IMG/VR virus record: IMGVR_UViG_3300042315_000659
Strand: one strand, 5' to 3'
Length of the DNA: 20,000 bases
Origin: an uncultured virus (IMG/VR IMGVR_UViG_3300042315_000659)
Taxonomy: Duplodnaviria > Heunggongvirae > Uroviricota > Caudoviricetes
In this document: in pieces, positions 1,880 to 20,000 of the stretch
How positions within the stretch are numbered: position 1 is the stretch's first letter
Layout of the letters: every line of letters begins with the position of its first letter
Notes under the pieces: generated by a model
The model's database searches: none
Told to the model about the DNA's origin: nothing
Seen by the model: only the letters and a program-made list of their open reading frames with translations
Position numbers and translations under genes: made by a program

Positions 1880-4186
1880 TTAGATGATCGTTGCTAGTGA
1901 TTCTTTAAAAGGTACTGGATAACTTGAGCTTTGAAAAACCCGTATTGTATAAGCCGATTGGACTGACCCCCAATCGGCTATCTGTTGCGATTCTGTGTAA
2001 ACGACGCTTCGGGCTGACGATACTGACCATTCTCGTTTTACTGTGTCCCCGTCGTAAATTCTGACTACATAGCCGTCCAACTCTCCCGCTGCGTAAGCAA
2101 TGTCGATATAGTCGATCCAACGACCATTTAACCGCGTCCGTCGATACCAAGTAATAATTAAATCGTTGTTATCTTTTTCCCCTCTTACAGCACAAGGGAA
2201 AGGCTTCAATCCTTCTAAGGTGATTGTGTGAGAGACTTCCTCCTCTATATCGGTTTCAAGTAATCCATTAGGAACTACTTTTAATAAATATTCTCGATTA
2301 ATATCAGAAAGATTTAAGGGGAATCGAACTAAATAATTAGTTAGTAACACAAATTTTTCTCCTATTATATGCCTAGAGATAGCCGGTTCAGTTCCTTTGA
2401 CTCCACGAATTGTATATGAAATATCAAAGGTCAAGGGATTGTTGGACACAATAGCAGCATTTTTAAACGCTATAATTTCTCCAGTAGAAAACCAACCTAA
2501 TTGTTTGCCTGATAGAAATGTTTCAAGAGTAACTGGCTCTAATTGCCCTGAATTCATGATTACTCGTATCCAATTTAAATCGTCAATAAAACTAGGAGAA
2601 GCGTTGTTAAAATTTGGGGAGAAGCTTAATACAGTACCAGTTACGCTGTTGACAACATTGCCAACAGCAAAATCATAACTTAAGCCGTTGTCATCGGAAT
2701 AAAATAAGGCTCCTCTGTTAAAACTAGAGTTACCTTCAATTGCCACATAAATTCCTGCGTCGGCATCTCGGCTATTAACTATTGGGCATTCAATAGGAAT
2801 AGCGTTAGCGCGTCCGTAGGGACGAGGAGTGTTATTGTCTGGCGGAAATTCGTTATAGGAACGAGGAATGTTATTGTCATTGTCTGGCGGAAATTCGTTA
2901 TCTATAGGAATATCTGGCAAATATCCTACTCCTTGAAATCGAGCAGCTTCAATTTCAATTAAATAATTTACTCCTCTTACTTTCTTTGTAATTTGCATCA
3001 ATTCTTGATGGTAATTGTTATTATCATCAGTAAAAATTATATCCCCAACCTTTAAATTTTCCCATGCTGGTAATAAAAACATTTTTGAGAAAGTTTTTGA
3101 TTGCGTTTTCCCTAAAAAAAGAATTTTTGAGGCAATATTCATAAAAAACATATCTATGTCTATTAGCTTAGTTTGGAAACTAAGCTCGTTTGTGTGAGTA
3201 TCTGATGGGTCTTTAGCTACTGCGGTAATAGTTTCATAATTTTTTAAAACATTTAGTCCAGATACCGTAACGGCACTAGGGGTTTCTCTAAAATGAGTCA
3301 GTTTTTTTTCATTAAGGTCAATAGGATTTTCTCCAAATTTTTTAGACCCAAAAGAGCTTTTAGGGATAAAAATAGGATCAGATGATTGTTCTTGTCTTTT
3401 AAAAATGATTTTATCTTTTGGCTCCCCTGTCACAATAAAAAAAGCTCTCATAAGTTCTTCTAACTGATCAGCAAAAGATGTCCCATCAAACAATAAATCA
3501 AATCCTTGAATTTGGTAATCATTAGGAATATCAGTTACGTCAATTTGATCGTCTGTTCTACCAGCTAATTTACAAATAGTTTTCAAAATATCTTTTATTT
3601 TTGGATTGTTTCCACTTTCTCCAATCACTTCAACATCAATAGTAGGAAATCCAGTGCCGTCATAATTAGCAATCGGATAATTATTAAAAACTAAAAAAGA
3701 CATTCCAGTAAAAGCAGGTACTGGGTTGGATTCTTTTGACTGAATTACTGACGATGGTGTAGTTTGATTGCCAGTATAAATAGTTGTGTGTTCAATAAAT
3801 TTTAGGCTTTTTTCGTCATTGGTTTCAGAGTTGTAAACAAGGACGCTATTCATCCAAACTCGCCTAACAGAGCCAATTTTTCTAGCAATTGGATAAGCGG
3901 CTGTCAGAAAATAAGTGTAAACTTCGGTAGTTTGCCCACCACCACCACCTTTTCCGCCTTGTCTTTCGGACGTGACGACTTCCTTAAGGGGAATCCCCCA
4001 CATCATAGTTAGCCCTTCTTTCCTCACCCTTCCAAAAGGATAAGATAGGCTTCTGCCGTATTCAGCATCGGGAACACCAGTATCCTCAATTTTTCCTTTT
4101 TGTTGGGTAGGGGGTTTAGGAGCAAATAGAGATAATAATAGGTTAGCTCCGATCCCTATTGCTACGGGAATGAGAAAATTAGCCAC
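1880..4186 (-). CDS. Phage tail tip / host-specificity protein (GTA megatron / gpJ-like)
   Basis: 768 aa. N-terminal AEYGRSLSYPFGRVR..MMW..GGKGGGG..YTY, VPAFTGMSFLVF, central Phage-tail_3-like region and C-terminal ITWYRRTR, as in GTA-type tail proteins. Confidence 0.8.
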   Translation of the reverse strand: MANFLIPVAIGIGANLLLSLFAPKPPTQQKGKIEDTGVPDAEYGRSLSYPFGRVRKEGLTMMWGIPLKEVVTSERQGGKGGGGGQTTEVYTYFLTAAYPIARKIGSVRRVWMNSVLVYNSETNDEKSLKFIEHTTIYTGNQTTPSSVIQSKESNPVPAFTGMSFLVFNNYPIANYDGTGFPTIDVEVIGESGNNPKIKDILKTICKLAGRTDDQIDVTDIPNDYQIQGFDLLFDGTSFADQLEELMRAFFIVTGEPKDKIIFKRQEQSSDPIFIPKSSFGSKKFGENPIDLNEKKLTHFRETPSAVTVSGLNVLKNYETITAVAKDPSDTHTNELSFQTKLIDIDMFFMNIASKILFLGKTQSKTFSKMFLLPAWENLKVGDIIFTDDNNNYHQELMQITKKVRGVNYLIEIEAARFQGVGYLPDIPIDNEFPPDNDNNIPRSYNEFPPDNNTPRPYGRANAIPIECPIVNSRDADAGIYVAIEGNSSFNRGALFYSDDNGLSYDFAVGNVVNSVTGTVLSFSPNFNNASPSFIDDLNWIRVIMNSGQLEPVTLETFLSGKQLGWFSTGEIIAFKNAAIVSNNPLTFDISYTIRGVKGTEPAISRHIIGEKFVLLTNYLVRFPLNLSDINREYLLKVVPNGLLETDIEEEVSHTITLEGLKPFPCAVRGEKDNNDLIITWYRRTRLNGRWIDYIDIAYAAGELDGYVVRIYDGDTVKREWSVSSARSVVYTESQQIADWGSVQSAYTIRVFQSSSYPVPFKESLATII

Positions 4187-4220: not shown

Positions 4221-4293
4221 TAGGTTGAGTAGGAATCGAACCTACCTAAGACGAATTATGAGTTCGTTGCCTTAACCGCTCGGCCATCAACCC
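4221..4293 (-). tRNA. tRNA with CAT anticodon (Ile2 or elongator Met)
   Basis: Cloverleaf: acceptor GGGTTGA/TCAACCT, anticodon arm ACGAA-CTCATAA-TTCGT, T arm GTAGG-TTCGATT-CCTAC. No encoded CCA. Confidence 0.9.
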
Positions 4294-4760: not shown

Positions 4761-4800
4761 AGGTCAAGCCTTTGATTTTGTCAATATGTTTGATTTTAAG

Positions 4801-4883
4801 TGGGTTAGGCTGGATTTGCACCAGCGTGGAATTAAATCTACAGATTTACAGTCTGTCACCTTCGGCTACTCGGTCACTAACCC
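4801..4883 (-). tRNA. tRNA-Tyr(GTA)
   Basis: Acceptor GGGTTAG/CTAACCC, anticodon arm ACAGA-CTGTAAA-TCTGT, long variable region, T arm GCTGG-TGCAAAT-CCAGC (atypical loop). No encoded CCA. Confidence 0.85.
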
Positions 4884-6783: not shown

Positions 6784-7105
6784 CTTGCAATCTACTTAAC
6801 AAGTCAAGCCGATTGTTACAAAAAAGGAGATTAAAAATGTATAACGATTATAGCACTTGCAATCTACTTAACAAGTCAAGCCGATTGTTACTCCCCTAGA
6901 TAGCGAGGATCGGGAATTTTGGCAATGCTTGTAATCTACTTAACAAGTCAAGCCGATTATTACGTGGCAACGACCTATCGCCCTATCTGAATTGGCAACT
7001 TGCAATCTACTTAACAAGTCAAGCCGATTGTTACAAAACCCACCGATCCAGACACTTTAGCGGTTCTGGCTTGCAATCTACTTAACAAGTCAAGCCGATT
7101 GTTAC
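6784..7105 (-). CRISPR. CRISPR array: 5 repeats of 36 nt, 4 unique spacers of 35-36 nt
   Basis: Repeat (minus) GTAACAATCGGCTTGACTTGTTAAGTAGATTGCAAG at 6784-6819, 6856-6891, 6928-6963 (2 substitutions), 6999-7034 and 7070-7105. Spacers at 6820-6855, 6892-6927, 6964-6998 and 7035-7069. Orientation inferred from the ATTGCAAG 3' end and the adjacent gene. Confidence 0.97.
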
Positions 7106-8778
7106 CCAGTCTCCCAGAGTGTAAGCTGCGTATAGCCTGCGTTGACTGTTTGCGCGGGTTGCGAGTGGATCGACCTTTTCCTTGTTTTTTTCTTGGGTGT
7201 CACTGGCTCGGAGGTCAAAACCAGTAAGGTTTCGAGGGTTTCTTCCCCAAGTAACAATCGGCTGGACTTGTCAAGTAATTCCTCCTGCGCTGATTCCTTA
7301 TCGAAATCCTTCAGAGGCTTAACTTCCCCGGTACAAGCCGGGTAGCTTCTTACGAAGTCTGCTTTCCCTAAGATGTTGATTGCGGCGGCCACATCTCTGG
7401 GTAAAGTACATCCACACTCTAAACATTTATGGGTGCGGGTTGATAAACTTTTTTTAACACGATTGCCACAGCGAGGACAATCCTGACTGGTGTAAGCTGG
7501 TTGAACCTTGATAAACTCTCGGTTGGGAGTTTTCATTTTCGTTTCAAGAAAACCGGTTAATTGTCCTAAACTAGCATCAGCAAAGGATTTATTTAATCCC
7601 CCTTTGGCTTTCGCGTTATTGCGTTCGTAGCCTTTACCGTCTTCTCTTTTTTTCGGTTTAGGTCGTCGCATTAAATTCTTTAAGTTGAGGTCTTCTACGG
7701 CTACAGCGCCATGATTTTTGACAATATCGGTACTTAGGGCATGATTAAATCCTTTGCGTTGTCTTGCTATTTTTTCGTGAGTTTTAGCAACTTTAGCACG
7801 AGTTTTAGCGAGATTTTTGCCGTCTTTATTTTCCCCTGCTTTATACTGTCTAGCGGTTTTTCTTTGCAGTCTTGCTAGTCTTTTTTGCTGTTTTCTATAG
7901 TATTTGGGCGGGTCAATTTGTTGGCCGTCGCTGGTACTAATTATATATTCTAGTCCTACGTCAATACCGATTGCTTTATCGGAATCAGGTAGATCATCTA
8001 CTTCAAATTCACCAAATAGACTTAGATAATATCCCGATGGGTATTTGATAATTGATACGGTAGAGGCTTTTCTGTCACCCCATCGAATGTCTAAAATATT
8101 GTTGATAATCTTTAAATCGCCTAATGTTTTACTACAGCTACCTATAGATATTTTATCCCCTTTTCTAACAGCGCAATTGCTGATCTCAGAATAAAGAGAT
8201 TTAATTTTATCTTCTTTTCTTTTAAATCTAGGAAGTTTTCTGTCTAAATTCTTTTTATCGAGTTTGGTGTAAGCTTTCCAGGAATCAGCAAGCTTTTTTA
8301 AAACCCCTTGGACAAAAGCCATAGGGATGTCCTTGCATAGCTCTGGACATTTTTCTTTTGTAATACAGCCACATAACCCAAAATAATTATCAGATTTTAA
8401 CCGCCGTTGAATAGGAATATGAACAGGATAAGAGTGACCTGCTTTTTGTCTTTTTTCTCTAGCTATCTGTATTTTAACTTTTTGCTTGCCAGTTAAATAT
8501 TTAGGGGTGTAAAGGGGATTAGGAAGGGATTTACCTTTTTCGTTTTTCAGGGAGTCAATAAATTGAGGTTTTTTAGCTAAACGACGTTTAACCCGTTTAA
8601 CTGGTTTTTTTGTTATTTTCTCAAGCTCGTCGTAATATTTATTAAGCTGATATTCCATCAGTAGCTCTAGTCCAAAATTCCAGACAGCTTTAAGCTCGTC
8701 CATCCAGCGATCAATATAGGCTCGCTGAGTGGCATTAAGGTTAAGTTTTATGTCCGCAATAGTTTTCTTGACTAGCAT
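7102..8778 (-). CDS. tnpB: TnpB / Cas12f-like RNA-guided nuclease (CRISPR-associated, type V-like), 558 aa
   Basis: N-terminal HTH_OrfB-like KLNLNATQRAYIDRWM..VWN, RuvC-I IGIDVG, bridge helix, RuvC-II VAVEDL, Zn ribbon CPRC/CLEC and RuvC-III RDVAAAINI. All three catalytic acidic residues are present. Confidence 0.92.
   Translation of the reverse strand: MLVKKTIADIKLNLNATQRAYIDRWMDELKAVWNFGLELLMEYQLNKYYDELEKITKKPVKRVKRRLAKKPQFIDSLKNEKGKSLPNPLYTPKYLTGKQKVKIQIAREKRQKAGHSYPVHIPIQRRLKSDNYFGLCGCITKEKCPELCKDIPMAFVQGVLKKLADSWKAYTKLDKKNLDRKLPRFKRKEDKIKSLYSEISNCAVRKGDKISIGSCSKTLGDLKIINNILDIRWGDRKASTVSIIKYPSGYYLSLFGEFEVDDLPDSDKAIGIDVGLEYIISTSDGQQIDPPKYYRKQQKRLARLQRKTARQYKAGENKDGKNLAKTRAKVAKTHEKIARQRKGFNHALSTDIVKNHGAVAVEDLNLKNLMRRPKPKKREDGKGYERNNAKAKGGLNKSFADASLGQLTGFLETKMKTPNREFIKVQPAYTSQDCPRCGNRVKKSLSTRTHKCLECGCTLPRDVAAAINILGKADFVRSYPACTGEVKPLKDFDKESAQEELLDKSSRLLLGEETLETLLVLTSEPVTPKKKTRKRSIHSQPAQTVNAGYTQLTLWETG
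7251..7345 (-). ncRNA. Putative tracrRNA / omegaRNA-derived scaffold inside the nuclease ORF
   Basis: Plus strand 7251-7277 GTAACAATCGGCTgGACTTGTcAAGTA matches 25/27 nt of the repeat in inverted orientation (anti-repeat). Upstream on the minus strand lie hairpin CCCGG-CTTGTA-CCGGG, linker GAAGTTAAG and stem CCTCTG...CAGGAGG. Boundaries are approximate. Confidence 0.8.
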
Positions 8779-8814
8779 GGCTTTTATGGATCGACCTTCT
8801 TTTATTCTTATTTA

Positions 8815-8844
8815 AATCTACCATAACCCTGCTAGAAATGTCAA
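8815..8844 (-). promoter_or_regulatory. Putative promoter of the nuclease/CRISPR transcript
   Basis: Minus strand TTGACA-18 nt-TAGATT with a TG extended -10. Part of a 32-bp sequence duplicated at 9264-9295. Confidence 0.6.
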
Positions 8845-8853
8845 GTAAGAAGT

Positions 8854-9222: not shown

Positions 9223-9263
9223 AACTTATAGTAGAAAAAGGTGCTAAACTATATTTGACTTAC

Positions 9264-9295
9264 TTAAATCTACCATAAGCCTACTAGAAATGTCA
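9264..9295. repeat. 32-bp direct repeat of 8812-8843
   Basis: ttaaatctaccataagcctactagaaatgtca vs ttaaatctaccataaccctgctagaaatgtca, 30/32 identical. Confidence 0.85.
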
Positions 9296-9430
9296 GATAA
9301 AAATTATTATCCTCTTAACGTCCGTACATCAGAATCAGAAGAGAAAAAGCTAAAAAACTACTGTAAAACCCGGAAGCGGTCAATAACCGATGTAGTCCGG
9401 GAATTGATTAGAAGTTTACCCGATGACTGA
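9290..9430 (+). CDS. Ribbon-helix-helix (CopG-like) regulator, 46 aa, below the ORF-track cutoff
   Basis: MSDKNYYPLNVRTSESEEKKLKNYCKTRKRSITDVVRELIRSLPDD: beta strand LNVR, helix, then S-I-T-D-V-V-R-E-L-I helix. Followed by a terminator-like hairpin. Confidence 0.8.
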   Translation: MSDKNYYPLNVRTSESEEKKLKNYCKTRKRSITDVVRELIRSLPDD

Positions 9431-10428: not shown

Positions 10429-10678
10429 GTTAGATTGTAGATATTGTTATTAACAATAGAACCCTTGATATATATAGCTTCTAGACTTTGTTAATACTGT
10501 TAACGCTATCCCCCGATATTATTTTTTTACGCTCTTATTGCTGAGACTGTCTTTCCTTTTTACCCTATTTTCTTTTTTCCTCTATACAGTATTAACAGCA
10601 TCAACAAAGTCTAGAACCTTTACAGGGTAACGGTTTCGATTGTTAATAACCCTATTAACAATCGAAATACAATCTAAC
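10429..10678. repeat. Palindromic non-coding element, copy 2
   Basis: Terminal inverted repeat gttagattgta/tacaatctaac, inner arms ttctagactttgttaatactgttaa / ttaacagcatcaacaaagtctagaa, and hairpin cgattgttaata-accc-tattaacaatcg. Confidence 0.8.
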
Positions 10679-11011: not shown

Positions 11012-11443
11012 TTATTTTACCACTCCTAAAGTAGGTACTCGATAAATTAGTACAGGCGGGTATTCATGAATATAGGTCTTCATCACGCCATTTATTGAAT
11101 CAGCATGGACGTACTCACCATCTCCCAGATAAATCCCCACATGACCATTTACTCCTGACTTATAAAACATCAAAATATCTCCTTTACACAAATCACCTTC
11201 AACTCTATCTAGTAACCGATCAAGGAATTTGACTAAGAAGTTATTCCGGGGAATCCGTTCGTAGTTTTCAATAATGAAATCATGGGGCAAGAATCCGACT
11301 TCAATCCCTACGCCAGCAATAAATCCTACACAATCGGTTCCAATCCCTTTAAGCGATTGACCATGAAACCAAGGAGTACCGAGCCATTCAAGAGCTTCGG
11401 TAACAATTTGATTACCCAAAGAATCGTTTTTTAGTTCGTTCAT
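11012..11443 (-). CDS. NlpC/P60 phage tail-associated peptidase
   Basis: ALEWLGTPW.H...GTDCVGF (catalytic Cys) and GHVGIY....YVHA (His residues). Overlaps the end of the tape-measure gene by 32 nt. Confidence 0.9.
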   Translation of the reverse strand: MNELKNDSLGNQIVTEALEWLGTPWFHGQSLKGIGTDCVGFIAGVGIEVGFLPHDFIIENYERIPRNNFLVKFLDRLLDRVEGDLCKGDILMFYKSGVNGHVGIYLGDGEYVHADSINGVMKTYIHEYPPVLIYRVPTLGVVK

Positions 11444-14400
11444 TTTGTGTATTTTCCCGTTCTTTCAATTGATTCAAACTATAACCCATATCATTCCGTG
11501 ATTCTACAGTCACGTTATTGGTGTTATTAATTACCAAAGACTGATTAGAGTTATTGTTATTTGAGGTTGTGGAGTAATTAGGCTTACCCCCGACAAATCC
11601 CCCATTAGCATAGTTCTTAATAGGAGCATTATTTCTGTAGTCTAGATATGCTTCTGTTTCTTTAGGGTTGAGAATTAATTCATCTTCATTGGCTACGATT
11701 AATCGAGGTTTTCGGCCTCCCGACATTGCTCGTTCGCGCTGAAAAGCTGAAATGATATTTTTCTCTATCGGAACATTAGCATCTCCAACTTTCCCACCAT
11801 CACTAAATAGGCTGAATCCTGTACCTAGAGAAAAGGCAGAAGCCGGAGCAGAAGCAAAGCTAGAGGCTCCTACACTACCAAGTGATCCAATCGAACCAAG
11901 TCCCCCAAGTCCTCCACTAAAAATCCCTGTTATTCCGCTAAGTAGTCCATTAAATAAGCCACCTCCGCCACCGCCACCAAAAATAGAGGAAAAGATGTTA
12001 CCTACTGGTTTAAAGATACTGTTTAGGGCATTAGTAAAGAAGTTGCCTACTGGCCCGATGATTGCATTAAATACTGACTCAAATGCCTGAGTTATTGGTT
12101 TAGTAAAACCATCGATAGCAGAAGTTAAAGCATCGATAGCAGGCTTGGTAATACCCTCAACAAATTTTGTCATGATATTTAATCCAAGACTACTAAAAGC
12201 CGATCCTATTCCTTTTCCTTCTCTAATATCAGAGAAAAAGCTTTCAGCTGCGCCACGATTTGGGGAAGCATCTAATGCTACTCGTTCTAATCTTAATTCT
12301 GCAAGTTTTTCCCATTCTGATCGGATATTAGCTACAAAATCAGCGTATTGTGGTAAGTCTTTGTAAGGTTCTAAATAATCCTCTAATTCCTCTTTTTCTT
12401 TTTGTAGGCTAATACGTTCGGCAAGGATAGCAGAATCATCAAATAAAGTCGGTCGAGACTGAAATTCTAGTTGCGTTCTTTGGATAGTTAAATCATTTAA
12501 CCGATCACGAATGCTCCTGACTGTATCTCTGGTTTTTCTAAATGATGCTTCTAAGGTAGCTACTCCCTGATTCTTGCCTAATTGTTCAATCGCTTGATCA
12601 AGAATTGCTACCTGTTTTTTAGCTAATTCAGCGTTTTTAGCTAAAGCATCAATACTATCTGTCATTTCTTTGATAAATTCAGGGGGGAGAGCTATACCTT
12701 TTCTTTGAAATTCTCCTAAGATTTCTTTTATTGCGTCGCTGTATTTTTGTTGAGCCTCAGCATTTAAAAGTAAAGTTCGTCGCTGGTCTTTTAGTGATTC
12801 AATCTGAGAGCGATATTGTCGAGAGACTTCCGTGGCACTCTTGTTAATTTCTTCTTGTACTGTCAGATACCCTTTAGAGTTGATAGTCAAATCAGCGACA
12901 TTTTCGGAAGCATCTCTTAAAGTGCGTTCTAATGCACGGGCATCTTCCTCTTGCTGCCGTCTAAATTTCATTGATCTGTCAAGAGCATTGTTTAGATTTT
13001 GTTGCTCTTCTAGCCGTCTTAAGAACTCATCAGCGTTTTGGTTGGCTGTTTCAGCGTTGCGAATTTGATCAGCCGCTGCGCCAAGATTACCTGTAGGAAG
13101 ATTAGGAACGGGCGGTAAATTAGGACTCTGGAAGTTAATCGGATTGTCTTTAGGAACCGGTGGTAAATCGGCATCCCAGAAATTATCTTGATTTTGATTA
13201 GGTAAAGTCGGTAATTGGGCTATAGGTGGAGGACTACTAAATTCTGGACCACCTTTTCCTTCTTTTGTTTCTTCTTTTGTTAAAACACGGGGAGGTTGTA
13301 AAACAGGAACAGAAGTGGGCAAGGGGACAGGAGAAGGGTTAGGGGCGGAGTCTTTAATGGATTGGCTAATTGCATTAGTAGCATTAGTTATTATTGTTCG
13401 ATTATTTAGTTGATTGCCGTTAATGTTTGCATAAGCAGTTACAATATATTCTTTCCCATTAATGTTTACCAGTCCAACGTTACCAATAACTTTAGAGTTA
13501 TTTCCAATTTTTCCGCCGATTTCATTATTGTACTTAAAATTTCTTGTTTGCCTCAGAGATTGTTCAGCTAATTGACTTGCAGGATTTTGATCTTTAATTA
13601 AAGACTGCATAGCTAACGTTACGTCTTGTGCTGTTGAAATGTTTGGAGTTCCACTGCCTGGTATATTTAAATACCTAGAAATAGTAGTGTTTTTATAACC
13701 TTCTTTTTTGGCTAATTCTGTAGCTCTGGTTAGCCCACCTAGCCGATCAATTAAAACATTAGTTGCCGTATTATCTGACTTTTCCAGCATTAACTGTATT
13801 AACTGTTCAACTGTTCTAACTTGATTGGCTTTTAATTGTCCGTGTGGATCAACCAAAGGCGATTTTATGGCGATAGCATCTTTTAAGGAAAGTTTTCCGC
13901 TTGCTATTTCTTTGGCAATCAAATCAGCAATAATAACTTTAATTGTACTAGCTGGCGACGCTGGGGGTGTTTGAGCATTTTTAGAATATACAGTTTCTCC
14001 GCCAACTTCTTGAACTAAAACAGATTGAATATTTTTTGGTAATCTGTTGGTGATTTGTTGCTGAACTGATGGAGAAGGGCTAGGGATGGAGTCTCTAGAA
14101 CCACCTTGACCGCCGCGACTTGTTTGTTTGCCGTCAAGATCGACAAACATTGAATTAGCTCCTGATTGAACTACCCAGTTAGCAATTTTTGCAATTTGAC
14201 TAGGATCAGTAAAAGCGATACAACCTGCGCTGCCAATCTTTAAATCGTCTAAATGGAATCCGATTTGTGATCTTCCAGTAGAGAATTTTGGTTCGGCTCC
14301 TATCCACGCAGGTCCAACAGTTCCTACTGGAATTTGACTGGGATTATAATTTCTAAACTGTCCAGAATTAAATTGTCGAAGATAGCGAGAAGCGTGGTTA

Positions 14401-17400
14401 GCGTCAATAGACCAATTACCGTCAGGAAGTGGAGTTTCACTGCCACGAATATTAGTTTTATTTGTGCCAATTGCAGACTGCGTTGATGGTCTTCCTGTTA
14501 CTCCTCCGATAACAGTATCAATTATTTTACCATCTTTTATTAAATCAAACCGTAGGATTTCTAGTCCTTCAGGAGTTTTTTGTCCAGAACGACGAACAAA
14601 AATAGTTGAGGAAGTAGAAGCCGATGGAGTGGAGGAAGGTTGTTCATATTTTTTTACAATTTCTTGATATTTTCTTGTTAAACTTTCTTTGCTTCTTTCT
14701 CTTTGCCCATATCCAGCACCAGGAAAAGCTGCCCATTCTTGACGAGCGGCAAATAAAGCACCCACCACATCACCTTTTAAAACTTCATCTAAAGCGCCTC
14801 TCATCATAATCCGGCTTATTGCCACTAAATCCTGAGATGTCGGTGAAAAATCTTGTAATCCTAATTTCGCTTTTTCTTCATCCCACGTCGCTTGCATTAT
14901 CTGGTATCTTCCAGCAGCGTCAGACCTTAATCCGTTTTTTGAAACTCTTTGTCGTGGATGATCTCTAAAAGAAACAAATTGTCCATGTCCAAATAAAGTA
15001 TTGTATCCTTCATTAGGCATATAATCAGTGCCTTCTGCATAGGCAACAAGATCAAGAAAAGCTCTGATTTGAGGATTATTCAAATATTGAGATGCTTGCT
15101 GTCCGCGAGGGGTTAGTGTAGAGGGTAGCGTGGAAGATGTGGGGAATGTGGAAAATGAAGCAGGCGGCGGCGGTAAAAACCCTCCCCCATTCCACACAGG
15201 AGCAGGGGCGAAATTACCAGGGGCTGGTAGTATCAAACCTTCCTTAGCTTTTCTAATTGCCTCCGCAGTTTCTTCTATACTTTTTACTAAGTCTTCTCCA
15301 GAAGTCTTAATATTTGGGGGAATAGCCACTAACTCAGAATTGATTAATTTAATTGGTTCTGGAAGTGTATTAAGATTTGTGACAATATCCTTGATTGATT
15401 GGGGAATAAAGCCTAATTCTTTATTGGTTTGTCGGATTAAATCAGCTAGAGTACGATTGAGGTCTTCCTGAGTCCGTTTAATATCTTCAATCGTTCTTAG
15501 TCTATTTCTTTCAGCCTCTTGCTGTTGCTCTTGTAAGTTACGAATATTTCTTAGAGTAGAGATATAGGAAGTTTCTATCTCCTCGGTTTGAGATTGGAAG
15601 GTGCGTCCGCGACTAGCAATATCAGCTTGTCCCTGTACAAATTCTAGGAAAATGTCACCTAATTCTTTACCAGCGTCGCTTGTACCGGGTATTAATAACC
15701 GGTTTTTGACTTGCTGCACCCTGATTCTATCGGTTGTATCTAATAGTTGATTTTGGGCATTTAAGAGGTTCTTATCGAGTTCTCTGACTAAATCACTGTA
15801 ACTTTCAGATAGGGAACGATTTTCTTTAAATGCTGACAGTTGAGCGTCTTCAATCTGTCTTCTGTAATCCTCAATCTGACGATTAAAGTCGATTATCTGA
15901 CGGTCAAGGTTGCGGTAGTAGTCTTGTAGTGATGTTTGTTGCTGTAATAGGTTAGCGCGGGCTTGTTCTAGGGCTAATCGGGTATTATCAACCTCTTGCT
16001 GAATCACATTAGGATCGTCTGACGCACTTTCTAATCGACGATAAGCCTCTCCTAATAATCTCTCTTGGTTGCGAACTTCTGATAAGGCATCCTGATAGGA
16101 AGCGGCTGGACCCCCAAAGGGTAATTGCCTTAAAGTAGCAATTCTCTCGTTGACATTGGCACCGACTATTGATGCTTGTCTGGCATTTCTTGCGCGCTCT
16201 CGTCTAGCGTTAGCAATTTCTAGTTCTGTATCAACAATTGATTTATCAATAGTTAAAGTTTGTCGTCTAATAGATGCTTGCTGTTTAGCTGTTTCTAATA
16301 CCTGTTTTAATTCAAAAGGCGCTTGATCTCCCAACTGTTGTAACCGATCACCTATAGCTTCTGGTGACACACTTCCCTGCTGTAATGCCGTTCTAAAATC
16401 TATTCCATTTAATTCAGGCATTAACTCAGTTATTCGCTGATTAATCAGATCTGTTAGGGTGTTTTGTAATTCTTTTTCTTTAGTTGCCAGTAATCCATTA
16501 AGCGAATTAAACTGATCCTTGACAATAGATAGGCTCTGTTCTCTAACGGTCAAATCTATTTCAAACGGCTTCAGGTTCCCAGATAAAACTTGTCGTTTAA
16601 TATCTGTTTCAGACAAAATAGTTCGTCCACTAGAGACAAATTCAATATTAAATAAAGCTCTTGCTACTTTATTTATTTGTTCTGTTAATCGTTGATAGTT
16701 GATTAAATTCTCTTTGACTGCTTCGTTATATTTTTCTTGCGATTCTTTTAATTTTCTAAGTTGAACTTCAGTAATTTCTAGCTGGATCCTAGCATTATCT
16801 TTTTGGGAACTAGAAGACCCTGGATCATCTAAAACTTTTTTAATTGCTGTAATTCTTTCTTCTGTAGATGCTATCTCATTAACAATAAGCCCAATTTGAG
16901 GAAAGTATTTTTCCGTTAAAGCTTGTATTTCTTGGTTTACTTTCGCAATTTCTTGACGAACAGATGTAGCTTTTTTAACGTCAGCATTTCCACTAGCTAT
17001 GATTTCATCTATCTTGAGGTCTTTCGCTTTTTGCCGCAATGTGTCAAGGTTACCCGTAAATTCGGTAATCTTTGTATCACTAAATGTGTCAGTTGATAAT
17101 TTTAAGATTTGTGTTGTATCACTTAGTCCCCCCGCAGTAAACTCTAAACTTTTATCTCTTTCTCTGTTGTTTTTAAATTGCTGAATTGCAGTTGCACTAT
17201 CAGTTATAACAGTAGAAGCTTTAGGTGTAGGTAAAGGTTTTTCTAGTAATCGTCTCAATTCTTGTAACGATTCTTGAGTTGATTTAAGAGATCGTTTAGA
17301 CTCTTCAGAGCCTGCGTTGATGTATTGATAAAGCCCTTTAAAAGCTTCCATTACACCAAAGACTAAAGCAGTCCATCCTAGCCCTTTAACAAATCCTATA

Positions 17401-20000
17401 CCTATTTGTGCAATTGATGCTTTTGTAGATGCTGCGGTAACTCCTAGTGCTTTTAGCCCTAACTTTAAAAGACCAAGCCTGTGTAACATTTGAACAAATA
17501 CACCCGATACAACAATCCCCATCGAAACAAAAGTAGCTACAATTTTATCTCCATGATCCTCTAAAGTCGTAAGTCCACTGATAACTGTAGGTATCCCTAA
17601 TTTAGCCACTTCTAATAAAGGTTTTCCCATTTCTACGCGAAGCAAGTTTAATTGATTTTCAAGTTTTGCAACTTGAGCAAAAGCCGTGTCATTAATTACA
17701 TTAATCCCTCCTGCTGATTCTAAAGTAGTTTGAGTTGCAAATTTCGACAAAAATTCATCTGATGCTACTGATCCAGACTCAATTAATTTAATAAATTCTT
17801 GAGCCGTTACACCATAAGCCCTAGAGGCAATCTGTAACGCGCCTGGCATTGCTTCACCTAACTGAGAGTTAAGTTCTTCCATTGAAACACGACCTTTACT
17901 AGCTATTTGAGTAATAGCTAGTAAAGCTCTGTCTTGCTGTTGAGAATTAGCACCTCTAGTAGCCAATCCTAATGTTATTCCTTCAAAAATTTTATCTTTT
18001 TGAAACTCTAGTGAAGTGTTCATTACAGCAGCACTAAACTGCTGATAGTTTTTGGCAGAAGACAAAAAAGATGTTCCAAGTTTATCTGCTTGTACTTTTA
18101 GCCTAGATAAAGCAGACTCAGCGTCGTCTGTGGTTAAGGATAAAGCCATTTCTAACCGCTCTGCTTCAATTGCTGTTTGAAAAGCTTCTTTTCCAAATTT
18201 ATTTAATAAACCAATAGTTGATTCAAGAATGTTAAAACCAACTATACCTAATATTGCGTTTCTTATTAGTCCAGCAACTTTCTTAATTGGTTCTGGTAAT
18301 TTATCAAGTGATCTTTCAACTTTATCAGCAATGGTGCTAAATTGCTCTAACTTACTTTTACTTTTAAAATCATCAATTTTATCAAGAATCCCTCCAATAT
18401 TAAAAACTTTTCTCCCTACCTGTTTAATATTTGTTTTTATTGTTTCACGGTTTAGGGGTTGCATTTGTTTGGCAGATTCTTCCATCTCCCATTGTCTAAA
18501 CTTTACTTCACTTCTTACATTACTAGGAAGTGCATTAAAAATTCTTTTCCCTGCTTTTTGGACATTAGTTTTTAAAGATTCACGGTCTAAGGATTTTACT
18601 TTCCCGACAAAATCTTTTATCTCTATCTCCTTAAATTTTAATTCAGTTTTTATTCCATCTAGTCCTAGTATTAAACCTCTTTTGATGTCACGACCAATTC
18701 GCATCATAACTTTTGATGGAGATTGAATCTCAAGTGTATCTCTAATTGTTTTCGGTAAGGTTAAAGCAATTTCCCGCATTTCCGCATCTAAATCACCAGA
18801 CTCGCTTTTAATTCCTATTTTTATCCCTTCTATAATGTCAGAGCCAAGTCCTTTAGTCTTATTTTTATTTGCTAAAACAGGATTTAAGCTTAAGATTAGT
18901 TTCTCTAAATTAGCCTCTATTAACTCTTTATTCCCACCAGAAGCTATTGATTTTGCCGATTGTTCTATAGCCTTTGCGAATAGAGTTTTAAAGCCTACTG
19001 TAGTAGTATCGACACCAGTTTTCTGAATTTGTTGAATTAGTCCTGATTTAATAGGAGATAATTCTTTTATACCAATTGTTTCTTGAGCAGTCTGAACTTT
19101 TTTTCCTGTACTACTTAAGTATCCTTTTGCAGACTGAACAGAAGCACCGACTCCCCCAGAAGCTATAGAAGTGGGCTGTCCAGCTTCTTTGAGTAATTTT
19201 AGTATGTCTTCTAAATCAGAAGAGGCTTGTTCTTTGGCAATTAATATTTCATTAGCTACTTTTTTTGCTTGGTCTAATTCACCAGAATCTATTAATGTTT
19301 TTAATTTTTGATAACGATCACTAAACCATTTTCTAATTGCGTCAGTTTGAGCCTGTGCTTTAACAATATCAGCAGATGCAGGATTACTTTGAATTAAAGA
19401 CTTTAGGTCTTTTGTCTGTTTAGACAGTGACACAAGTTCTTTTTCTTTAACACCTATATTGCTACTAACTTTATTGTCGGTTGTTATATTTTTAGACGGG
19501 TTATTTTTTGAACTAATACTAGGAATCTCAAACGATTTCTCTTCAGTGCCTAATTTAATGTTAGGAATATTGGTTGCTACTATACTATCAACTTTTAAAT
19601 GTTCTAAAGGTTTTGTAGCTTCTTTGACTTCTTTTAGCTGTGTTTCAATAGCTACTAATTCTCTTTGTTTTAATTGCAAAGATGACATATCAAATAGTTC
19701 TAATTGATCAGGAATATCTTCAATATTCTCCTGTAATTTATCAACTTCTTTATTCAATATCTTGATAATTTCTGCGTTTTCAAGGTAGTCAGAAGAAGAA
19801 TGTGACGCAATACCGGAAATAACTTGACTTTGCTTGGATACATCTGATGCCCCCATAGTTTGTTCTGCTAGTCTAATAGGGTCATTTTCTCCCATATAAC
19901 GAGAAAAATTATCTATTTGAGTAGTCCCGACCATTGACGGGGTAGCAATAGCTACCCCTTTTATATTTTCAATACCAGCTTGGTTTGCTAATCTAGTCGC
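11412..20000 (-). CDS. Giant tape-measure protein with embedded lysozyme, YkuD/Tlde1-like and serine beta-lactamase/PBP-like domains (5'-truncated)
   Basis: Tape-measure motifs LEIQSPSKVM and AITQIASKGRVSMEELNSQLGEAMPGA, long coiled coils, Gly-rich tail ending FSDGG/YANGG. The frame has no stop from 19934 to 20000, so the true start is outside the window. Confidence 0.9.
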   Translation of the reverse strand, partial: ATRLANQAGIENIKGVAIATPSMVGTTQIDNFSRYMGENDPIRLAEQTMGASDVSKQSQVISGIASHSSSDYLENAEIIKILNKEVDKLQENIEDIPDQLELFDMSSLQLKQRELVAIETQLKEVKEATKPLEHLKVDSIVATNIPNIKLGTEEKSFEIPSISSKNNPSKNITTDNKVSSNIGVKEKELVSLSKQTKDLKSLIQSNPASADIVKAQAQTDAIRKWFSDRYQKLKTLIDSGELDQAKKVANEILIAKEQASSDLEDILKLLKEAGQPTSIASGGVGASVQSAKGYLSSTGKKVQTAQETIGIKELSPIKSGLIQQIQKTGVDTTTVGFKTLFAKAIEQSAKSIASGGNKELIEANLEKLILSLNPVLANKNKTKGLGSDIIEGIKIGIKSESGDLDAEMREIALTLPKTIRDTLEIQSPSKVMMRIGRDIKRGLILGLDGIKTELKFKEIEIKDFVGKVKSLDRESLKTNVQKAGKRIFNALPSNVRSEVKFRQWEMEESAKQMQPLNRETIKTNIKQVGRKVFNIGGILDKIDDFKSKSKLEQFSTIADKVERSLDKLPEPIKKVAGLIRNAILGIVGFNILESTIGLLNKFGKEAFQTAIEAERLEMALSLTTDDAESALSRLKVQADKLGTSFLSSAKNYQQFSAAVMNTSLEFQKDKIFEGITLGLATRGANSQQQDRALLAITQIASKGRVSMEELNSQLGEAMPGALQIASRAYGVTAQEFIKLIESGSVASDEFLSKFATQTTLESAGGINVINDTAFAQVAKLENQLNLLRVEMGKPLLEVAKLGIPTVISGLTTLEDHGDKIVATFVSMGIVVSGVFVQMLHRLGLLKLGLKALGVTAASTKASIAQIGIGFVKGLGWTALVFGVMEAFKGLYQYINAGSEESKRSLKSTQESLQELRRLLEKPLPTPKASTVITDSATAIQQFKNNRERDKSLEFTAGGLSDTTQILKLSTDTFSDTKITEFTGNLDTLRQKAKDLKIDEIIASGNADVKKATSVRQEIAKVNQEIQALTEKYFPQIGLIVNEIASTEERITAIKKVLDDPGSSSSQKDNARIQLEITEVQLRKLKESQEKYNEAVKENLINYQRLTEQINKVARALFNIEFVSSGRTILSETDIKRQVLSGNLKPFEIDLTVREQSLSIVKDQFNSLNGLLATKEKELQNTLTDLINQRITELMPELNGIDFRTALQQGSVSPEAIGDRLQQLGDQAPFELKQVLETAKQQASIRRQTLTIDKSIVDTELEIANARRERARNARQASIVGANVNERIATLRQLPFGGPAASYQDALSEVRNQERLLGEAYRRLESASDDPNVIQQEVDNTRLALEQARANLLQQQTSLQDYYRNLDRQIIDFNRQIEDYRRQIEDAQLSAFKENRSLSESYSDLVRELDKNLLNAQNQLLDTTDRIRVQQVKNRLLIPGTSDAGKELGDIFLEFVQGQADIASRGRTFQSQTEEIETSYISTLRNIRNLQEQQQEAERNRLRTIEDIKRTQEDLNRTLADLIRQTNKELGFIPQSIKDIVTNLNTLPEPIKLINSELVAIPPNIKTSGEDLVKSIEETAEAIRKAKEGLILPAPGNFAPAPVWNGGGFLPPPPASFSTFPTSSTLPSTLTPRGQQASQYLNNPQIRAFLDLVAYAEGTDYMPNEGYNTLFGHGQFVSFRDHPRQRVSKNGLRSDAAGRYQIMQATWDEEKAKLGLQDFSPTSQDLVAISRIMMRGALDEVLKGDVVGALFAARQEWAAFPGAGYGQRERSKESLTRKYQEIVKKYEQPSSTPSASTSSTIFVRRSGQKTPEGLEILRFDLIKDGKIIDTVIGGVTGRPSTQSAIGTNKTNIRGSETPLPDGNWSIDANHASRYLRQFNSGQFRNYNPSQIPVGTVGPAWIGAEPKFSTGRSQIGFHLDDLKIGSAGCIAFTDPSQIAKIANWVVQSGANSMFVDLDGKQTSRGGQGGSRDSIPSPSPSVQQQITNRLPKNIQSVLVQEVGGETVYSKNAQTPPASPASTIKVIIADLIAKEIASGKLSLKDAIAIKSPLVDPHGQLKANQVRTVEQLIQLMLEKSDNTATNVLIDRLGGLTRATELAKKEGYKNTTISRYLNIPGSGTPNISTAQDVTLAMQSLIKDQNPASQLAEQSLRQTRNFKYNNEIGGKIGNNSKVIGNVGLVNINGKEYIVTAYANINGNQLNNRTIITNATNAISQSIKDSAPNPSPVPLPTSVPVLQPPRVLTKEETKEGKGGPEFSSPPPIAQLPTLPNQNQDNFWDADLPPVPKDNPINFQSPNLPPVPNLPTGNLGAAADQIRNAETANQNADEFLRRLEEQQNLNNALDRSMKFRRQQEEDARALERTLRDASENVADLTINSKGYLTVQEEINKSATEVSRQYRSQIESLKDQRRTLLLNAEAQQKYSDAIKEILGEFQRKGIALPPEFIKEMTDSIDALAKNAELAKKQVAILDQAIEQLGKNQGVATLEASFRKTRDTVRSIRDRLNDLTIQRTQLEFQSRPTLFDDSAILAERISLQKEKEELEDYLEPYKDLPQYADFVANIRSEWEKLAELRLERVALDASPNRGAAESFFSDIREGKGIGSAFSSLGLNIMTKFVEGITKPAIDALTSAIDGFTKPITQAFESVFNAIIGPVGNFFTNALNSIFKPVGNIFSSIFGGGGGGGLFNGLLSGITGIFSGGLGGLGSIGSLGSVGASSFASAPASAFSLGTGFSLFSDGGKVGDANVPIEKNIISAFQRERAMSGGRKPRLIVANEDELILNPKETEAYLDYRNNAPIKNYANGGFVGGKPNYSTTSNNNNSNQSLVINNTNNVTVESRNDMGYSLNQLKERENTQNERTKKRFFG

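Follow-up and report, generated by a model that had tools for sequence, protein, structure and literature searches.

In the accessible portion of PMC10097598, a pseudoknot is described as conserved in TnpB and all Cas12 guides. The same portion describes the omega-RNA of ISDra2 TnpB, in which the stem-1 loop pairs with the last nucleotides of the scaffold just 5' of the guide and the RNA overlaps the 3' end of the gene; this is one RNA, with a guide taken from the transposon flank. Cas12p (Cas12 hacker; PDB 9JFS) is a phage-borne miniature type V effector with a 4-bp pseudoknot (R:AR-1) between crRNA positions -1 to -4 and tracrRNA positions 7-10, and a GTN PAM, according to the available part of the preprint (bioRxiv 10.1101/2025.01.20.633832). 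For Cas12n (V-N, formerly V-U4) the available text reports a tracrRNA that overlaps the effector ORF (PMC12216341), a disordered C-terminal tail, a pseudoknot of three canonical pairs extending stem 1, and an A-rich PAM. In the V-U2 locus of cyanophage vB_AphaS-CL131 no tracrRNA was reported and the array direction was called elusive, in the portion of PMC6293099 at hand. A literature search turned up nothing on V-U2 activity or on the structure of its guide; the TranC paper and Tordoff et al. 2025 may cover these points. A knot in V-U2 is to be expected, because it is common to TnpB and Cas12 guides and is 4 bp long in the relative Cas12p.

The window (the whole 20,000-nt stretch analysed, from an uncultured virus, IMG/VR IMGVR_UViG_3300042315_000659) contains a TnpB-like RuvC gene adjoining a CRISPR array, which sits at the stop codon of the gene and comprises five repeats (7105-6784). 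The features are:

8815..8844, minus strand: candidate sigma-70-like promoter before c2c8, from a consensus match only
7102..8778, minus strand: c2c8 (type V-U2) effector gene, 558 aa (profile match, RuvC residues, structure model)
7327..7342, minus strand: stem-1 hairpin of the tracrRNA-like scaffold, 5-bp stem and 6-nt loop, codons 479-484
7334..7337, minus strand: predicted pseudoknot core, loop nucleotides 1-4 (CUUG), partner the last four repeat nucleotides (CAAG) (covariation)
7332..7333, minus strand: loop nucleotides 5-6, which can pair with repeat -5/-6 here (U-G, A-U); pair 5 unconserved
7281..7317, minus strand: predicted second scaffold stem-loop (fold prediction only)
7251..7277, minus strand: anti-repeat, 27 nt, pairs with repeat nucleotides 1-27 and may extend weakly to 7280
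7070..7105, minus strand: repeat 1, 36 nt; pseudoknot partner at 7073-7070
7035..7069, minus strand: spacer 1; two plasmid-like contigs match it with 6 mismatches
6999..7034, minus strand: repeat 2
6928..6963, minus strand: repeat 3, a variant ending TACAAG, in which pair 5 changes from U-G to U-A
6892..6927, minus strand: spacer 3; 4-mismatch match in locus L351 (G705:C195), 5' flank without T at -2
6856..6891, minus strand: repeat 4
6784..6819, minus strand: repeat 5 (last)
4221-4293: tRNA-Met, phage tRNA gene
4800-4883: tRNA-Tyr, phage tRNA gene

The effector passed the C2c8 model NF038192 (371.5 bits; cut-off 350) and failed both the IS200 TnpB model (175.3 bits; cut-off 425) and the IS607 TnpB cut-off. 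Its identity as an IS200/IS605 TnpB was ruled out by the sub-cut-off TnpB score together with the presence of an array. The RuvC triad is complete (D273, E362, D462), and the protein is a putative RNA-guided DNA nuclease. The structure model is confident to about residue 480, has a low-confidence insert at residues 65-119, and is mostly below pLDDT 50 from residue 484; in this predicted model the disordered residues 484-558 coincide with the scaffold RNA. The stop codon falls within repeat 1. A fold search with the model ranked Cas12p first and TnpB next. Many C2c8 proteins end their disordered tails, just before the array, in a conserved Q-L-x-L-W/F motif (7102-7130 in the window, and homologs), the rest of the tail being unconserved. 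The motif resembles a sliding-clamp-binding motif. Upstream, a promoter-like 45-nt sequence occurs twice, before c2c8 (8807-8851) and before the preceding ORF (9259-9303).

On the minus strand, 7342-7327 reads CCCGG-CTTGTA-CCGGG, with the loop at 7337-7332. The 36-nt repeat ends in TGCAAG, which in antiparallel orientation forms five Watson-Crick pairs and one U-G pair with the loop; this complementarity, on which the initial annotation built its proposal of a pseudoknot, was reproduced from the sequence. The annotation had also described the six-nucleotide repeat end as essentially the part left free by the anti-repeat. In the two-strand minimum free energy (MFE) fold of scaffold plus repeat, which keeps the hairpin, the unpaired stretch is the last 9 nt rather than 6. 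The anti-repeat is 93% complementary to the repeat, and one bulge lets it reach U-6. In the folded scaffold the pair probability of stem 1 is about 0.7. Rfam detected two tRNAs in the window and no family covering the scaffold. A tRNA-Phe called by ARAGORN at 7485-7581 lies inside c2c8, is absent from the Rfam result, and is probably false.

At the level of this single locus the match between loop and repeat is modest and only moderately unusual. Among 58 perfect hairpins with a 5-bp stem and 6-nt loop in the window, two pair 6/6 with the repeat end, the other one sitting in the tape-measure gene. Within 7400-7106 the loop 6-mer is the sole one of its kind. The match stands above chance because of covariation in homologs. 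Contigs from RNA libraries, which carry no information on RNA strand or ends, span the scaffold in three of four runs, run X23 having no scaffold coverage. In three runs RNA contigs end at repeat 1; this was rejected as a processing site because any assembly breaks at repeats.

The search for homologous loci covered collections of viruses, genomes and metagenomes as well as annotated records, and cyanobacterial genomes were searched too; of 300 loci with a RuvC-region hit, 122 reached a score of 340 bits or more with alignment A1. After removal of loci nearly identical to the window, additional members of lineages already represented, array-less loci and ordinary TnpBs, 26 array-bearing loci were left; L265 and L249 possess arrays and were excluded for low family scores. 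The hairpin search pattern consisted of stem and flank letters only, taken from the window and the first homologs seen. Hairpins were found at a nearly constant distance, 261-348 nt past a fixed protein anchor. Two of the 26 loci (L304, L309) have no matching hairpin within 10-11 kb. Curation was partly unblinded: the L048 hairpin was chosen by eye, that of L307 from three candidates, and repeat ends were hand-trimmed in five loci. A consensus pattern scan of viral contigs returned two loci, one new and an ordinary TnpB.

Covariation across homologous loci had been named as a check on the proposed knot, and the complementarity is kept for loop nucleotides 1-4: these pair with repeat positions -1 to -4 in 24/24 loci with a hairpin and an array (24 of the 26 array-bearing loci), and in all 15 protein clusters at 60% identity. 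Over 100,000 permutation rounds the mean was 4.3 and the maximum 12 of 15 clusters (p<1e-5), a p-value which, like the others, is overstated because the loci are related. In slid registers at most 7/15 clusters pair. Seven loop:end versions occur (CUUG:CAAG, CUUG:UAAG, CUUU:AAAG, CUUC:GAAG, GUUC:GAAC, GUUU:AAAC, CCUU:AAGG) and they differ on both sides of the helix. On a quick protein tree, the careful search being unfinished, at least nine changes are required to account for them. In a MAFFT alignment of 22 loci that was not fitted to structure, pair 1 is CG in 16 and GC in 6, pair 2 is UA in 21 and CG in 1, pair 3 is UA in all 22 and thus invariant, and pair 4 is GC in 9, UA in 8, GU in 3 and CG in 2. 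The covariation score on this alignment was 0.547 vs 0.158, and none of 500 shuffles scored as high. In the homologs stem 1 is 95.5% paired, and three of its five pairs have changed on both sides. In the loop:repeat helix, both sides of pairs 1 and 4 have changed together more than once, which is difficult to account for without pairing.

The hairpin loop is therefore best read as one half of a guide-RNA pseudoknot in a phage-borne type V-U2 (C2c8) CRISPR system, whose tracrRNA lies in the end of the effector gene and whose loop nucleotides 1-4 pair with the repeat end; a probability of about 0.88 is given to this reading. The comparison of homologs shows the 4-bp pairing and its register, which strand is used, and that targets carry a T-rich motif on their 5' side. 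It is very hard to credit that no pairing takes place, with protein coding fixing the loop, integration by host Cas1-Cas2 fixing the repeat end, and shared ancestry accounting for the match. The hairpin does lie within an open reading frame, many repeat ends resemble host repeats (ATTGAAAC/G), and the one other hairpin of the window is an equally good chance match. However, separate constraints cannot yield seven joint two-sided changes, and the match is kept where the hairpin lies past the stop codon or outside the gene (L283, L288, L290, L302, L307). Loop nucleotide 2 occupies a four-fold degenerate codon position and yet is constant in 33/33 close relatives. Also improbable, if slightly less so, is a nested fold in which the same bases pair with stem 1 open and no pseudoknot forms. 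Such a fold is the MFE structure of the precursor including spacer 1, where 7339-7332 pair with the repeat end and two spacer bases; it hinges on the first bases of spacer 1, comes from a program unable to draw pseudoknots, and would leave open a stem that is itself conserved.

The length of the knot is a separate question. The initial annotation had proposed 6 bp, and the 4-bp core stood the comparison while the six-pair length did not: pair 5 forms in 6/24 loci, and pair 6 in 20/24. Repeat position -5 is G in all 24. In the five loci where an anti-repeat was significant with a seed blind to -1 to -6, it pairs -5 in 5/5 and -6 in 4, and leaves -1 to -4 largely open. Since the anti-repeat takes -5 and pair 5 forms in so few loci, the family design appears to be an anti-repeat up to -5 plus a 4-bp knot. 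In the window the anti-repeat carries a G opposite G-5, which is unusual in the family, so a longer knot could form here. Pairs 5 and 6 may form in the lineage of the window, with no support from covariation. That all six loop nucleotides pair with the repeat end in this lineage, displacing anti-repeat pairs at -5/-6, is nevertheless unlikely. In its favour, 6/6 pairing can be drawn in the window and in 6/24 loci (permutation p=2e-4), and pair 6 in most; the -5 base is free in the window; and two natural variants, loop U5→C in 3/33 close relatives and G-5→A in repeat 3, strengthen pair 5. On the other hand, pair 5 is broken in 18/24 loci with no two-sided change, U5→C is the only synonymous option for that Cys codon, a truncated fold gives U-6 a 0.56 probability of pairing with the flank of the anti-repeat, and the Cas12p and Cas12n structures contain 3-4 canonical pairs.

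Placement of the anti-repeat is tentative in most homologs, because in free duplex folding it was stronger than all shuffles in only 4/24 loci and a 7-nt seed scan was significant in 5/24, missing the real anti-repeat of the window. In two loci (L049, 4270-4700; L042, 4140-4330) the repeats of the array have degenerated strongly, the last ~10 nt (GCGATCGCAAG) alone being constant. Selection acting on the knot and on the anti-repeat pairs next to it would fit this pattern.

Under the pseudoknot reading, a minus-strand transcript would run through c2c8 into the array, and the last ~90 codons of c2c8 would also serve as a tracrRNA, with a TnpB omega-RNA as its ancestor. The anti-repeat would pair with the 5' part of the repeat, and loop nucleotides 1-4 of stem 1 with its last four nucleotides, directly 5' of the spacer. 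By analogy with the TnpB, Cas12n and Cas12p structures, this short helix may stack on stem 1, dock in the WED/RuvC cleft and set the first spacer base as the start of the seed. The tracrRNA might be released from the mRNA by self-processing or by RNase III acting on the 27-bp duplex. Repeat 1 lies 145 nt from the anti-repeat and might itself fold in cis, giving a natural single guide. The complex would presumably cut double-stranded DNA of small plasmid-like host elements next to a 5'-TH-like motif.

The spacers bear on polarity. They are diverse (89 distinct in 35 arrays), and 40 of the 86 that are at least 28 nt long have matches (no more than 17% mismatches) in 26 loci belonging to the genus of genome G609; four arrays were used to find these target loci. 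The genus is taken to be Microcystis, because the C2c8 locus of G609 is near-identical to one on a Microcystis plasmid. Most targets are contigs of 5-9 kb that encode an integrase, DUF3987 or DUF3854. When the spacer is taken to lie 3' of GCAAG, as the initial annotation had predicted, the 5' flank has T at -2 in 33/40 protospacers (p=2e-12) and at -1 in 24/40 (background T 0.29), and the 3' flank has no bias. This T-rich 5' motif independently supports the predicted polarity. It may be a preference of the host enzymes that acquire spacers and not the PAM of the effector. The best target of the window itself (spacer 3, L351) lacks T at -2, which counts against the motif, and two of the four spacers of the window have no close match. 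Spacer sharing was equal at the two array ends (6 vs 6 of 20 arrays). A BLAST search of two arrays against a plasmid collection gave no match.

Among the described systems, Cas12p is the best fold match of the window's C2c8 (E 1e-20); a RuvC insert is common to both, and both are phage-borne miniature type V effectors with a 4-bp knot at the repeat end. Their identity is ~20%, however, and, as far as the available Cas12p text goes, the repeat ends in AAAC there and in CAAG in the window, and the GTN PAM contrasts with the T-rich motif of the window family, in which G at -3 is found in 6/40 protospacers. Membership in Cas12p was rejected on the PAM (no GTN) and the repeat end. A further Cas12p trait is a thioredoxin-binding domain; the window's C2c8 model has the low-confidence insert at residues 65-119. 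A tracrRNA inside a disordered ORF tail, a Cas12n trait, is present in the window's C2c8, and the predicted knot likewise extends stem 1. Cas12n belongs to another family (E 2e-16 to 9J09), and its three canonical pairs and A-rich PAM, as given in the accessible text, differ from the 4-bp core and T-rich motif here; sequence family and the lack of an A-rich PAM ruled out membership. The ISDra2 omega-RNA is matched both in the position of the loop pairing and in the overlap with the 3' end of the gene. It differs in being a single transposon-guided RNA, whereas the window has a tracrRNA and a fast-changing array.

The CL131 effector belongs to the same family as that of the window (38% identity), and the hairpin recurs in its locus, L279, together with a repeat end that matches it. 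This offers an answer to the two points left open for CL131, the missing tracrRNA and the array direction. In L279 the ORF stops at 3907, inside the scaffold and 34 nt past the start of the hairpin; at 4014-4025, still within the scaffold and before the array, there is a sequence like a repeat end. The proposed knot gives V-U2 a scaffold anchor, a register, a strand and a candidate PAM, which would allow a direct single-guide test. The stem-1 loop can also serve as a tool, predicting the guide start in array-less relatives, and it exposed a nuclease-dead branch of the family.

Two loci (L302, L307) carry the hairpin outside the gene, upstream of c2c8 on the opposite strand, and it matches their own repeat ends. 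Here the scaffold has been relocated out of the ORF and resembles a stand-alone tracrRNA gene, with a -10 box, the stem-1 hairpin, an anti-repeat and a terminator. Four other loci (L145, L157, L069, L295), kept outside the statistics, have an intact active site; the gene is followed by one repeat or a truncated one, and the end of that repeat fits the loop (GUUC:GAAC, CUUC:GAAG, AUUG:CAAU). Seven distinct loci of terrestrial cyanobacteria encode C2c8 relatives that lack all three RuvC acidic residues and the zinc finger: L298 (=L046, G1007:C24), L201, L301 (=L047), L299, L300, L058 (=L305) and L281 (=L306). They combine the loop CUUG with GTTGCAAG 9-12 nt past the stop codon, in place of an array.

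The putative guide of the dead locus in G1007, i.e. the bases right after the CAAG end, matches 14/14 nt in two distant chromosomal type IV pilin genes and, with one mismatch, one more pilin-like gene. The dead gene has a recoded pilin 277 nt downstream, and the pilin copies beside it differ from the guide at 3 and 2 of 14 positions. In G1073 and G1017 the TLIEL-like guides have no pilin target: among 6 and 5 pilin-like starts the best have 3 and 2 mismatches in 14, and matches to the 14-nt guide are at control level. The pilin match is thus found in one of three genomes, and the N-terminal coding stretch of pilins is itself conserved. TldR and flagellin are described in the available part of a preprint that there mentions neither pilin nor cyanobacteria (bioRxiv 10.1101/2023.11.30.569447), and reversion of an inactive Cas12f to a single RNA is described in the accessible text of PMC10691335. 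It is conceivable, though rather doubtful as a whole, that C2c8 is one family in three states: an in-gene tracrRNA with an array, an upstream tracrRNA gene (L302, L307), and a dead protein with a fused guide acting as a pilin-swapping repressor. If true, the dead branch would be a CRISPR-derived RNA-guided repressor and a cyanobacterial counterpart of TldR and flagellin.

Around c2c8 the window has the gene content of a phage (tape measure, tail, NlpC/P60, Rha, RecT-like, two tRNAs), and no cas family, adaptation genes included, was found among the 12 of its 22 ORFs that were scanned. The contig is cyanophage-like, from a virus of bloom-forming cyanobacteria. Near-identical copies of the locus occur at 38 viral loci, and in the phylum of the nearest genome (G001) matches were confined to that genome (1 of 401). 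A non-coding element of ~230 nt with internal inverted repeats is present as two diverged copies (1595-1830 and 10431-10678), 8.8 kb apart and each upstream of a gene block. The 2840-aa tape-measure protein (11412-19934) contains a beta-lactamase-like domain (PF13354, residues 1972-2168), probably a cell-wall-acting module.
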